A program made the translations under genes and the position numbers. DNA of 12,899 nt. Origin: Planctomycetota bacterium. GTDB taxonomy: Bacteria; Planctomycetota; UBA11346. Where the stretch lies: positions 1 through 12,899 of the forward strand of contig JBBQSO010000120.1 in assembly GCA_038213805.1 (NCBI GenBank). The letters are read 5' to 3'. Shown piece after piece: positions 1,781 through 7,535 of this stretch; position 1 is the first letter of the stretch, and every line of letters starts with the position of its first letter. Under the pieces are notes generated by a model that was not told where the DNA came from, searched no databases, and saw nothing but the letters and a program-made list of their open reading frames with translations.

Positions 1781-2055
1781 GGCGCGAGGCGCAGCGATTT
1801 CAGCGCGTCCGCACGGGTGGGAGTGGTGCGGAAGGGCGGCCCACCGCGCCGCAGCTCGACATGGTTACATGACCGGGATAAACCGGAGTTAATTGATCCA
1901 TCCGCACGACAGACGTGCCCGAACCGCTGCGCACATCCAGGAAGATCCAGCACGGCAGGCGACCTTGCCAGGATTGACCACCCGCAACATGCCTGACAAA
2001 GATGGGAAAGGCCGGCCCCTGAAGGACCGGCGTGCCCTCGGTCCAGGAGCCCTCC

Positions 2056-3573
2056 ATGCCCGGCAACGCCTCCGCCTCGACCACCGTCCGCTATGACGCG
2101 CCCGCCGCCCTCGCCGGCGCGCGTCCCGAGGGCGATCCGCTGTCCGGCGACCATGCGGACGCCGACGCGCGCACGCGCCTGGCGCCCGGGCCACAGGCCG
2201 ACGCGCGGCCGCAGGCCTTCCTCCTCGCCGGCGGCGCCAAGGGTGGCGATGGCACGGTGCAGGATGTGGTCAAGGTCGGGGGCGACGGCACGGTGACCTG
2301 GACTCCGCAGACGCCGAAAGGGCACGGCCTCATCGCCGGCATCGGGATGTTCGACCATGATGGTAAACCGGTGGCGATCGGTCGTCGCGACGCCCAGGGC
2401 TGGATCACCCTGGACAATCGCTATGGCGGCGGCCGGGCCAGCGAGGAAGCGGTGGTCGAAGCCGCGCACCGCAACCACTTCGGCCCGCTCCAGGACAAGG
2501 GCCCCAACGTCCTCGACGCTGAGATCGCCAAGAGCCTCGCGCCGCTGGTATCGCCCAGCGAGGTCGTGCCCGGCAGCCGCACGATTTCCATGTTCGTGGA
2601 CGGCACCGGCAGCTTCGTGAAGGAGCAGTCGAACATCACCAGTCTCTACCACGACACCAAGGGCACGCGCTTCTACTACGGCGGCCTGGGCAACGACGTG
2701 GAATACCCCGACGCCCTCGACCGCAACCTCGCGGGTGCGGTGGCCAAGGGCTTCGATCGCACCATCGATCGCATGTACGCCGACCTCAGCCATACCTGGG
2801 AGCCGGGCACCAAGGTCGACCTCTACGGCTTCAGCCGCGGCGGCGCGCAGGTGGTGGAATTCGCGCGCATGGTGCAGACGAAAGGCATCGAGGTGGGCGG
2901 CGTGCGCTACCAGCCCGAGATCGAGCACGTCGGCCTGTTCGACCCGGTCTACTCCGTCGGCCAGCCGGGCCAGGATTCCAAGGACATCATCGCCACGCTC
3001 GGCAGCCAGAAGGGCAACTACGTGATCGCCGACCTGCCCGCGAACATCAAGCACGCCGACGTGCTCTACGCCCAGCACGAAGAGCGCACCTTCTTCCCCG
3101 CCACGCGCTTCCTGCCCGACAGTCCCGACACCACTCTGCGCACCGCTACCGTCCCCGGCAGCCACAGCGACGACGGCGGCCACCGCGAGAACAATCAGCA
3201 CATCATGAAGCTCGCGCGCAGCTGGATGGAAGACGGCAACGCTGGCGCTGACAGCCCCTTCAAAGGCAGCTACCGGCTGAGCGCCCCGGAGTTCGCCGAG
3301 GCCACCAGCATCCATGCGCTGGGCAAGTTCGCGCCCGGCGCCTACGGCGCCCAGGCCTCCGATGGGTTCAACTTCTCCTCGATGCTGCACGTGACCGACA
3401 GCTTCGGCAATTCCGTGCCCAGCCACCAGTCGCACGACAACCATCAGCCGCGCGACCTATCATGGGCGGGCCCGTCAATCATCCCAGCCGGGCCGCTGCA
3501 CGACGCGCTGGCGCACCGGCGGGATGCACTGCTGAGGCTGGGGGAAAGGCACGAGGAGGGGGAGGGTAAGTGA
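2056..3573 (+). CDS. DUF2235 / Tle1-like alpha/beta hydrolase (putative phospholipase) with an uncharacterised N-terminal region
   Basis: Ordered motifs FVDGTG, SNI..LY, YYGGLG, LYGFSRGG (Ser codon 2833), GLFDPV (Asp 2941), ERTFF and VPGSHSDDGG (His 3163). AGGAG at 2045-2049 precedes ATG 2056. No obvious signal peptide. Confidence 0.85.
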   Translation: MPGNASASTTVRYDAPAALAGARPEGDPLSGDHADADARTRLAPGPQADARPQAFLLAGGAKGGDGTVQDVVKVGGDGTVTWTPQTPKGHGLIAGIGMFDHDGKPVAIGRRDAQGWITLDNRYGGGRASEEAVVEAAHRNHFGPLQDKGPNVLDAEIAKSLAPLVSPSEVVPGSRTISMFVDGTGSFVKEQSNITSLYHDTKGTRFYYGGLGNDVEYPDALDRNLAGAVAKGFDRTIDRMYADLSHTWEPGTKVDLYGFSRGGAQVVEFARMVQTKGIEVGGVRYQPEIEHVGLFDPVYSVGQPGQDSKDIIATLGSQKGNYVIADLPANIKHADVLYAQHEERTFFPATRFLPDSPDTTLRTATVPGSHSDDGGHRENNQHIMKLARSWMEDGNAGADSPFKGSYRLSAPEFAEATSIHALGKFAPGAYGAQASDGFNFSSMLHVTDSFGNSVPSHQSHDNHQPRDLSWAGPSIIPAGPLHDALAHRRDALLRLGERHEEGEGK

Positions 3574-3819
3574 GTGGCAGCGGCGGAAAGCGTACGGATG
3601 GGATGTAGCTCGTCACTGGTCCGGGAAGGTGCTGAAGCGCAGGGCATGTGCATCGCGTGAGGGCGTGATCGCGAGTCAGGGAGAGGATTGCCAAATTGCT
3701 GGGCGGCGTGCGGCGTTATGTCAGCGTCAGCGCATCAGCGCAGCCATGAATGAGCCCGCGGAGCGGGCGGCAGAAATTAGCCCAGGTCGTGAGCCCTGGG
3801 ACCAGATGCACGCTGCTAT

Positions 3820-3910
3820 AATCTCCTACGGTCCGCGATTCCTGCCGGCCAGAATGCCTTGGTTGCAGGCCGGGCCGAGTGCCGGCAGGAATCGCGGACC
3901 GTAGGAGATT
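3820..3910. repeat. Perfect 30-bp inverted repeat with 31-nt loop (hairpin H1)
   Basis: AATCTCCTACGGTCCGCGATTCCTGCCGGC (3820-3849) is the exact reverse complement of 3881-3910. Confidence 0.98.
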
Positions 3911-4123
3911 CCGTTCCGGGGGAATGTCTACGACCCGAGGATTGCGGGCGTCCGGCCGATCGCATTGGAGCCGAAATCCTGCCGGGGGAAATTCTGTCGC
4001 CCGCCTCCGCGGGCTAAAATTCTCGATTTGTGATGGTTCCCAGGGCTCACGCCCTACCCATTACCCACATCTCGAATGTTGGCGAAATTCGCGGAAAAAT
4101 AACCCCGAAATGCACCTGCCCAA

Positions 4124-4429
4124 AGCCTGCGGAGCGGGCGGCATCCACTAGCCCAGGGCGCGAGCCCTGGGAATCCAAACGTATGGAGGGGTCGAGCCCG
4201 CGCAGCGGGCGACATCGTTTTTTCCAGGGCGTAAGCCCAGGGAAATGCCCAGGAATGAATCAATCATGCATGAATCCCGCACGGTTCGCGGTTCCTGCCG
4301 GCTGCATCCTAGCCGTCATCGCAGACCATTGATCGGCAGGAACCGCGAACCGTGCGGGATTGGGGTTCGCTGCCATCTCGTCCCAGGGCTGACGCCCTGG
4401 CCTAGTCGATGTCGCCTGCTCCGCAGGCT
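4124..4429. repeat. Inner REP-like cluster with 49-bp inverted arms (4124-4172 / 4381-4429, 43/49 identical)
   Basis: Layout is A+B, A+B', hairpin H2, then inverted B+A. Arms aligned by eye. Confidence 0.9.
4273..4361. repeat. Perfect 28-bp inverted repeat with 33-nt loop (hairpin H2), homologous to H1
   Basis: AATCCCGCACGGTTCGCGGTTCCTGCCG (4273-4300) is the exact reverse complement of 4334-4361. It differs from the H1 arm at 5 positions. Confidence 0.98.
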
Positions 4430-4602
4430 CAGAAATCGGCAGATTTGCGATTATTATGTGCTGTCGACAGCAGTTGTGGGTAGTGGGTAGGGCTCACGCC
4501 CTGGGCTAATTTCTTTCGTCCGCTCAGCGGGCTCGCGGATTGGGCTGCGCAGAGTGGCTGTCAGGCTCAACGTATCGCTTCCACGCCTGCATGATGCACG
4601 CT

Positions 4603-5010
4603 TCAGCGATACCCATCCATCACCCCCAGCGGATAGCGCACCTCGCCACCCTCGTTCACCCCGCGCTCGGAGATCTCCTTGAGCGCGCGCAGCAGGTGCG
4701 CCTCCGACGAGACGATCAGCAGAGAGCCACCGCCCTGGTGGATGAACACGTAGCCCTCGCGACCAGGATTGGGCCGGAATACGGAAATGTACAGGCAGCA
4801 CACCGGATTCACCGCCGAGACCGTCAGGTCGTCGCCGATCGCACTGCCCGCGGCGCGCAGGAAGGCCATCACCGCGGCCTTGGTCGGCGCGCTCAGCGCG
4901 ATGCTGCTGCACGCGGGACCGGCGAATATCCGCGCCCGCTCAGCGCTGCCCGCGGCATGTGCCGTGGCCAGCGCGAGGATGAAGAGGATGGCCAGTCATA
5001 CGGCCGCCAT
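4603..5010 (-). pseudogene. Small exported protein gene with in-frame TGA at codon 5 (pseudogene, sequencing error or readthrough)
   Basis: GAGGTGGGGG-ATG directly follows the gyrB stop. The frame reads MAAV*LAILFILALATAHA-AGSAERARIF... and runs without further stops into the 4603-4872 ORF. Signal-peptide-like segment with an AHA cleavage site. Confidence 0.65.
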
Positions 5011-5018
5011 CCCCCACC

Positions 5019-7535
<2,517 letters not shown>

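Follow-up and report, generated by a model that had tools for sequence, protein, structure and literature searches.

The window analysed here comprises 12,899 nucleotides of contig JBBQSO010000120.1 from a Planctomycetota bacterium (GTDB lineage UBA11346, assembly GCA_038213805.1). It contains a repeat region of repetitive extragenic palindromic (REP) units, which forms the 1-kb spacer between two convergent genes. Within this spacer, the segment 4054-4490 is very probably a MITE (miniature inverted-repeat transposable element) of a Tn5/IS50-like insertion sequence (IS) of the IS4 family that has inserted into a REP stem-loop on its axis of dyad symmetry. A first reading made from the letters alone (the sequence-only reading) had already proposed a REP-targeting MITE at this place, and the proposal is supported by the ends of the element, by its family of copies, by the target preference of that family and by relatives that bear a transposase. 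The genome of the window, G000, is a fragmented metagenome bin of 180 contigs, 90% complete, in which repeats are poorly assembled; C and L numbers below denote contigs and fetched loci, respectively.

The 14-mer AGGGCTCACGCCCT, which had been described as a direct duplication, is present at 4042-4055 and again at 4489-4502. The inverted ends reported just inside it are likewise found, with ACCCATTACCCACA (4056-4069) and TGTGGGTAGTGGGT (4475-4488) being complementary at 13 of 14 positions. They are indeed unique in the window: with up to two mismatches the end motif occurs at these two sites only, where 0.06 occurrences are expected, and none of 200 shuffles reached two. With the same tolerance the 14-mer occurs six times (0.20 expected), always within 3784-4502, and its two exact copies are the flanks of the element. 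Because the target is a palindrome, the length of the duplication had been left anywhere between 4 and 14 bp. This ambiguity is real for the window, and it is removed by non-palindromic duplications in relatives, which refine the length to 10 bp. The first bases of the element are CT (4054) and its last bases are AG (4490). A perfect 14-bp palindrome, TGCTGTCGACAGCA, lies as claimed at 4459-4472, 2 nt inside the right inverted end, and is partly kept in four other arms of the same type (C3, C7, C12 and C19). The cargo had been described as free of open reading frames (ORFs). In agreement with this, ORFs in and around the element lack Pfam matches: none was obtained at E<=0.01 for the six ORFs (69-100 aa) that overlap the repeat region or the neighbouring gene, nor was there one for the ORF at 4454-4912, which runs into the MITE, is rich in arginine and looks spurious. 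The segment combines terminal inverted repeats (TIRs) matching those of an autonomous IS, a duplication of the length typical of the family, a small size without a transposase gene and several genomic copies, as is characteristic of MITEs.

Removal of the insert together with one duplicate was said to rebuild an intact REP unit, and 4039-4053 plus 4491-4534 do read as a single one. It consists of the stem-loop CCCAGGGC-TCAC-GCCCTGGG, a linker and a second hairpin at 4517-4532, and aligns with 3752-3797 in inverted orientation (BLAST, 89% identity). Rfam family RF01687 (Acido-Lenti-1) matches the right part partially (4489-4533, 18.9 bits). The intact unit to the left of the element folds as DNA (3750-3802) into two hairpins with -13.2 kcal/mol.

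The ends of the element belong to a family with many copies and a narrow lineage range. With up to one mismatch, the 18-mer end motif put forward in the sequence-only reading has 32 matches in G000, 43 in the sister species G003, 14 in another congener, G010, and one in each of two more genomes, and none of the remaining 36 of the 41 genomes searched contains it; the reversed 18-mer, which served as a control in the same search, gave 0 matches. Many of the copies in G000 lie within ~400 bases of contig ends, the pattern expected of a repeat that breaks the assembly. The sequence-only reading had called for several copies with a duplicated REP motif, and many copies were found, most of them joined to half a REP hairpin. 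Among 46 ends in G000 (16-mer, <=2 mismatches), 24 adjoin a 20-bp hairpin, 13 adjoin a 19-bp type and 9 adjoin other sequence. The corresponding numbers for the fetched G003 loci are 42, 9 and 9, i.e., 51 of 60 classifiable ends are located at a REP half, one further end being too near a contig edge to classify. As there are 54 intact stem-loops (<=2 mismatches) in the 5.5 Mb of G000, this preference for hairpins cannot be due to chance. Apart from REPs, the family lands chiefly in runs of the heptamer CCCTAGA (opposite strand, GGTCTAGGGT), as at several loci (G000 C40:46750-46780, C21:7885-7899 and C31:48866-48880; G003 L063:1-1104 and 1307-1400).

Evidence for the duplication comes from the paired ends of relatives. 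The 28 end-pair rows of G003 include 18 perfect 10-bp duplications and three more with 9 of 10 positions identical. Perfect 9-bp duplications are present in the 19-bp hairpins of L028 and L069, and L046 has an 8-bp duplication at a non-hairpin site. The remaining rows are L025 with inverted flanks, two rows for L047 that are alternative pairings, and L060, which runs off a contig end. In G003, elements are flanked on both sides by duplicates of rare loops (GCAA, AAAC, AGGG and TGAC) or of non-palindromic targets, GTCCAGAGCC for example, cases that would result neither from chance matching nor from a long inverted repeat. Whatever the length of the hairpin centre, the joints lie between CCCAG|GGC and GCC|CTGGG, so that a centre of 4 nt goes with 10 bp and one of 3 nt with 9 bp. 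A 170-bp subfamily from metagenomes has an 8-bp duplication at GGCTAGRC in three of five pairs. G000 has ten distinct end pairs. Perfect duplications flank three of them, namely the pair in the window and those at C42:29806-30204 and C148:4880-5265; a fourth pair matches at 7 of 10 positions, and the other six have hybrid or inverted flanks.

In principle, the half hairpins could be part of the element itself, forming together with the 16-mer a TIR of ~31 bp. There would then be neither REP targeting nor a 10-bp duplication, and the direct repeat would be a by-product of the palindrome within the inverted repeat. Such an arrangement would fit the half hairpins carried by 37 of the 46 ends in G000 and the copies with inverted flanks (G003 L025, G000 C42:34900-35309 and C65:12706-13100, metagenome L089 and L130), one of which is a full-length IS and one of which, L130, has flanks that match at 19 of 20 positions. 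We nevertheless consider it very unlikely. The flanking loops are direct repeats in 18 of the 28 G003 rows, rare loops included, and non-hairpin targets show clean non-palindromic duplications that start exactly at CT. Moreover, the sequence beyond the hairpin is not the same on the left as on the right and restores a canonical REP unit, and an insertion-free hairpin exists at an orthologous site in G000 (C49, see below). Hybrid and inverted flanks would be explained by recombination between copies residing in near-identical REPs, as has been put forward for ISRm22 (PMC1525189); alternatively, inverted flanks may stem from insertion into an extruded hairpin.

A Tn5-like transposase is associated with the same ends. 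At three contig edges of G000 (C55, C66 and C105) a family end is followed by an open frame running inward, which on the other strand is the C-terminus of a protein that finishes two bases before this end. The 61-residue piece matches Pfam Dimer_Tnp_Tn5 with 40.4 bits (cut-off 26.7). The rest of the gene is absent from the G000 bin, for which tblastn with the transposase of the congener G002 yielded the C66 fragment only, and an exact scan for the transposase-side end gave 2 contig-edge copies in genome contigs and 0 in metagenome contigs. Complete ISs are found elsewhere. That of G002 encodes a 468-aa transposase with the domains Tnp_DNA_bind, DDE_Tnp_1 and Dimer_Tnp_Tn5 (393.6 bits against the NCBIfam IS4 family), and has the ends CTGCCCATTACCCATAAGTC and CTGCTCATTAGCCATAAGTC with CTG as start. 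This IS and a neighbouring short segment with an end of its own form a composite, which is bracketed by a 10-bp duplication, CTTTGGAGAC, of a target that is not a palindrome. A metagenome scan with a degenerate 20-mer returned 110 stretches, and pairing within the 80 loci fetched from these gave five elements of 1445-1488 bp. L081, L089, L127 and L143 carry the window's end CTACCCATTACCCACAAGTC, and the three elements scanned for domains (L089, L127 and L133, the last with variant ends) all possess the three Tn5 domains. One of these elements sits in CCCAGGGCGTTGCCCTGGG with a 9-bp duplication. In general, the ends of complete relatives begin with CTG or CTA, and 10-bp duplications occur in non-palindromic targets. 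The 20-mer with which the element of the window starts on the left is thus also found bordering Tn5-like transposase genes. The autonomous copy anticipated by the sequence-only reading, in which these ends enclose a DDE transposase, accordingly exists in G002 and in metagenomes, while the G000 assembly contains no more than the last 61 codons. Plasmid relatives of the full-length transposase are numerous (585 records), all below 60% identity with ~40% for the best, and are annotated only as 'IS4 family transposase' without a named IS.

With respect to the precedents that had been cited, IS1397 and IS621, REP targeting proved a valid parallel, and the transposase is Tn5-like (IS4 family) rather than of the IS3 or IS110 type. 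Membership in the IS3 family (IS1397 type) was rejected on the basis of the domains of the relatives, Tnp_DNA_bind, DDE_Tnp_1 and Dimer_Tnp_Tn5. An assignment to IS110/IS1111 (IS621 type) was rejected as well, since the window has clear inverted ends and a 10-bp duplication and the enzyme of the relatives is a DDE transposase resembling that of Tn5.

The target and cargo units are short, imperfect palindromes between genes that recur in the genome, as expected of REPs, and elsewhere in G000 units of this family flank a transposase gene. This Y1_Tnp gene of the REP-associated tyrosine transposase (RAYT) type (C97:14408-14752, 77.3 bits) has an RF01687 match on either side; the two score 46.5 and 44.9 bits and lie on opposite strands (C97:14204-14998; L073:1297-2091), which is the classical REP-RAYT arrangement. 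The REPs flanking a second RAYT, on C48, are of a related type with 3 nt at the centre of the stem-loop. RF01687 appears in Table 1 of Weinberg 2010 (PMC2864571). The two opposite-strand copies flanking the Y1 transposase gene suggest that this Rfam family, filed as a small RNA (sRNA), is a RAYT-associated REP. When 150 of 1660 candidates in G000 were scored, 29 matched RF01687 and 16 of these exceeded the gathering score. Tens of copies, not hundreds, were found in G000, with 150 of the candidates scored and with repeat regions that are poorly assembled; REP copy numbers are quoted as >100 per genome (PMC2817692).

The whole region might also be viewed as a cluster of the bacterial interspersed mosaic element (BIME) kind, built by the RAYT/REP system, with the 14-16-mer as a REP module and not a transposon end. 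The region is packed with REP units, RAYT genes are present in the genome, one of them between inverted REP units, and fixed distances separate 18 of 29 intact REP matches from the 16-mer. There is, however, only a slim chance that this is correct. Tn5-like transposase genes in the congener G002 and in metagenomes have the 16-20-mer at either end, and in G000 it adjoins the C-terminus of such an enzyme. Target duplications of 8-10 bp are observed, and HUH/Y1 enzymes (IS200/IS605-type transposition) are not known to make them.

The MITE thus placed in a REP unit carries REP units itself. Cargo units 1 and 3 (Table 1) fold with -15.2 kcal/mol (4122-4173) and -14.4 kcal/mol (4378-4431). A second full copy of the element resides at G000 C19:436-880 (BLAST, 83.5% identity over 448 columns). 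It has all cargo units at homologous positions, and similarity ends at CT...AG. Partial copies are present on C3, C105, C148, C7 and C12. From the homologous placement of the internal REPs in the C19 copy it follows that they were aboard before the two copies diverged. The sequence-only reading had left undecided whether the element carries its target motif or was later colonised by REPs; our results speak for REP units on board before the last amplification and against later colonisation. In G000 as a whole, the distance from an IS end inward to an intact RF01687 match is 41, 65, 68, 70, 125 or 137 nt for 18 of the 29 matches obtained from the candidates scored.

Nesting of the family in itself is observed elsewhere in G000. 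On C148, an outer element with the two arm types of the window (87.7% and 75% identity) and a single central stem-loop is interrupted by an inner element of 386 bp (4880-5265), which splits that stem-loop and is flanked by a perfect duplication of GGCGTGAGCC. At the end of C105 three ends follow each other in the same direction, 99-110 bp apart, the innermost belonging to the transposase-bearing IS. The edge of C12 likewise has three same-direction ends, and C7 has five, two facing three. The window's own cargo hairpins remain intact.

Long, near-perfect hairpins are present at 3811-3915 and 4272-4360, the former folding with -43.5 kcal/mol (z -10.3). A long hairpin and its adjacent REP unit form a separate repeat of ~165 bp that recurs at C2:64081-64247, C8:13167-13337 and C105:16790-16957 as well as on C3 and C19. 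Matches of the window to Rfam microRNA families were dismissed, as they are far below the gathering scores and represent chance matches to the long hairpins.

Empty sites were sought for the insertion in the window and for related insertions in G003. When the flanks of 25 G003 end pairs were mapped on G000, four candidates were inspected and only C49 proved clean: between homologous flanks it has an uninterrupted terminator-like hairpin where G003 contains a 1.9-kb element with the duplication GGCAAACGCC. At the other candidate sites (C12, C26 and C74) unrelated intergenic DNA without an empty hairpin was found. The request for an empty-site allele is hence answered for a related insertion and not for that in the window. 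The orthologous intergenic region of G010 has a different small gene and no REP cluster. The orthologous region of G003 is broken between the ends of two contigs and is occupied by another element; past its first REP unit, the orthologous spacer (G003 C12:1-450, L040) contains a different, coding-looking element up to the contig edge. The 1.9-kb element of G003 (L021:770-2698) has family ends, a perfect duplication, REP units as cargo and a 227-aa ORF without Pfam match. Part of its cargo, moreover, resembles the flanking gene that borders it on the left and is possibly a partial duplicate of that gene. This element was discarded as a candidate for the autonomous copy as its seven ORFs have no Pfam match at E<=0.1, and an IS110-like reading of a DVSK-like start in it was dropped for want of support.

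An artefact of assembly, in which the repeated 14-mer would have led to a wrong join in this metagenome bin rich in repeats, must be weighed against these results. The fragmentation of the bin into 180 contigs, the many family copies at contig edges and the public-run contigs, which break throughout 3780-4510 with none of those listed bridging the left junction, would all be compatible with it. On the other side, an exact 97-nt public contig spans the right junction (4417-4513, 0 differences), although it possibly derives from the same sample as the assembly. Furthermore, the C19 copy, which is independent, has the same two arms in the same order, and a chimera is not expected to yield a TIR-bounded unit plus a perfect duplication that rebuilds a canonical REP. 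We give next to no credence to a misassembly. Among the fragmented public-run contigs no joint skips the element; a joint from 3780 to 4039 has a side of 22 nt, looks like a cross-match from REP to REP and was disregarded.

Several observations weigh against a REP-targeting MITE. Perfect duplications are restricted to 3 of the 10 pairs in G000, the others having hybrid or inverted flanks, and the nearest copy, that on C19 with its 83.5% identity, has no duplication. The loops GTGA/TCAC make up 20 of the 54 intact hairpins in G000, and from the loop counts the chance that two unrelated hairpin halves match is estimated at ~9%. The duplication in the window is weak evidence when taken alone, and it is the evidence at the level of the family that carries the case. 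No empty-site allele for the window insertion was found in the orthologous regions of G010 and G003 or in public-run contigs, and the left junction is unbridged in the latter. Finally, of the transposase the G000 assembly contains just the last 61 codons, too little to demonstrate a working enzyme in this organism.

For the chemistry of transposition, as judged from the enzyme family, for mobilisation in trans and for current activity we infer the following course. Full-length copies would supply the transposase in trans, and insertion would occur by cut-and-paste. The enzyme would bind two CTACCCATTACCCACA ends (~19-20 bp), pair them and excise the element. Staggered joining to target strands 10 bp apart, followed by gap repair, would produce the duplication GGCTCACGCC. 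The target was the centre of a REP stem-loop, CCCAG|GGC-TCAC-GCC|CTGGG, of the REP family that flanks a RAYT gene elsewhere in G000; the transposon family strongly prefers this symmetrical GGC-N(3-4)-GCC hairpin core. The position of the joints suggests the hypothesis that it is each half-site on its own, or else the stem, that determines where joining takes place. Since the element carries three or four REP units, every new copy brings further landing sites, and nested insertions accumulate. The element in the window shares just its terminal ~16-20 bp with the Tn5/IS50-like IS.

ISs that target REPs occur in the families IS3, IS110, IS4, IS256 and IS5 (PMC1525189). Among them, ISRm22 of Sinorhizobium meliloti comes closest as a precedent. 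According to the account of Tobes and Pareja 2006 (PMC1525189), all its genomic copies reside in REPs, at the axis of palindromy of a GC-rich palindrome, and hybrid direct repeats in three of nine copies were attributed to recombination between copies. As far as this description goes, ISRm22 resembles the family studied here in its IS4 affiliation, in insertion at the REP axis and in the occurrence of some hybrid repeats, and differs from the element in the window in being an autonomous IS with reported 6-bp direct repeats (PMC1525189). The palindromic target leaves this length of 6 bp ambiguous, just as in the window before relatives settled 10 bp. REP-carrying MITE derivatives or nesting are not among the features given for ISRm22 in the passages cited (PMC1525189), and in the literature searched no description was found of a MITE derivative that carries its own REP target and nests in itself.

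The complete relatives have the same three Pfam transposase domains as Tn5/IS50, and the family shares with it ends of ~19-20 bp and the start CT. The inner ACAAGT of the family end resembles the Tn5 outside end. Tn5 makes 9-bp duplications and has a weak target preference. The family described here, in contrast, makes duplications of 8-10 bp and strongly prefers hairpin cores. Tn5 is stated to favour targets that are symmetrical and have G/C at either end of the duplicated stretch (PMC1525189). IS1397 and ISKpn1 (IS3 family) and ISPsy8 are described as inserting specifically into REP/BIME palindromes with a short duplication, a feature shared with the element in the window (PMC1525189). They have another type of transposase (OrfAB, rve) and 3-4 bp duplications and are unrelated to the ends in the window. 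IS621, ISPpu9, ISPpu10 and ISPa11 (IS110 family, guided by bridge or seek RNA) are also reported to target REPs (PMC1525189, PMC11208160, PMC12288879). These elements employ a DEDD recombinase; they are without terminal inverted repeats, and there is either a core of 2 bp or no repeat at all. REPINs (REP doublets forming hairpins) and RAYT-associated REPs were reportedly described by Bertels and Rainey in 2011 and by Nunvar in 2010. They resemble the target and the cargo units here as two-hairpin REPs in inverted pairs around a Y1 transposase gene, and the 437-bp element itself differs in being bounded by IS ends and a target duplication, both of which REPINs lack.

Table 1 Coordinates of the MITE, its ends and duplications, and the REP units in the window.
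Feature	Position	Strand	Remarks
Non-autonomous element (putative MITE) without transposase gene	4054..4490		437 bp; ends set by comparison with complete, homologous ISs
Left terminal inverted repeat CTACCCATTACCCACATCTC	4054..4073	+	16/16 outer bases identical to family end CTACCCATTACCCACA
Right terminal inverted repeat, minus-strand reading CTACCCACTACCCACAACTG	4471..4490	-	15/16 outer bases identical to family end CTACCCATTACCCACA
10-bp target-site duplication GGCTCACGCC, left copy	4044..4053	+	10/10 identical to 4491-4500
10-bp target-site duplication GGCTCACGCC, right copy	4491..4500	+	
Left part of split REP stem-loop CCCAGGGCTCACGCC	4039..4053	.	20-bp hairpin-half class
Rest of split REP unit: right stem-loop part, linker, second hairpin 4517-4532	4491..4534	-	89% identity to 3752-3797
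Intact REP unit, same family as split unit	3753..3800	-	RF01687 Acido-Lenti-1, 40.4 bits (gathering score 37)
Cargo REP unit 1, 70 nt inside left end; intact stem-loop 4152-4171	4124..4171	-	RF01687, 34.7 bits, below cut-off
Cargo REP-like unit 2, degenerate stem-loop 4223-4242	4194..4244	.	BLAST to REP units; motif map
Cargo long hairpin, kin to 3820-3910 hairpin	4272..4360	.	3751-3911 vs 4431-4272, 70% identity; kept in C19
Cargo REP unit 3, in opposite orientation to unit 1	4382..4429	+	RF01687, 26.1 bits, below cut-off

On the left, the spacer is bordered by an ORF that ends at 3573 and encodes a Tle1-like phospholipase domain. This ORF (2032-3573, 513 aa) matches the catalytic domain of Tle1-like phospholipases of the type VI secretion system (T6SS; PF09994, 73.7 bits), and a 587-aa ORF overlapping it on the other strand has no family match. 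The gene on the right is a small minus-strand ORF that ends at 4603 and adjoins gyrB. Read by eye, the minus-strand frame 4603-4998 has the look of a small secreted protein, and its start LAILFILALATAHA is signal-like. No ATG, GTG or TTG is located upstream of LAILFILALATAHA in this frame, and the listed ORF starts at 4872 (89 aa).

The feature in the window is a real and fairly ordinary case of selfish DNA nested in selfish DNA. REP targeting by an IS4-family element was already published in 2006 for ISRm22, and current views are not overturned. The anatomy of the element in the window is now settled with a 10-bp duplication and ends that start at CT, an unannotated thicket of repeats is linked to a named enzyme family, and the breakage of G000 and of sister assemblies at these sites is explained. 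The family also offers a natural data set on a Tn5-type transposase choosing symmetrical GC-rich hairpins, with dozens of insertions in which the length of the duplication follows that of the loop, and its MITEs, by carrying their own target, give rise to nested 'dolls'. A speculative extension, which we hold to be possible and still doubtful, is that this Tn5-like lineage reads the geometry of a hairpin or palindrome instead of using a fixed stagger, as the duplication tracks the centre (4 nt with 10 bp, 3 nt with 9 bp, and 8 bp at GGCTAGRC), and that its MITEs are the main carriers of a RAYT-type REP, because 18 of the 29 intact units are found at fixed distances in MITE arms. If this were true, two unrelated selfish systems would feed each other, with REPs serving as landing pads for the MITEs and MITEs copying the REPs.

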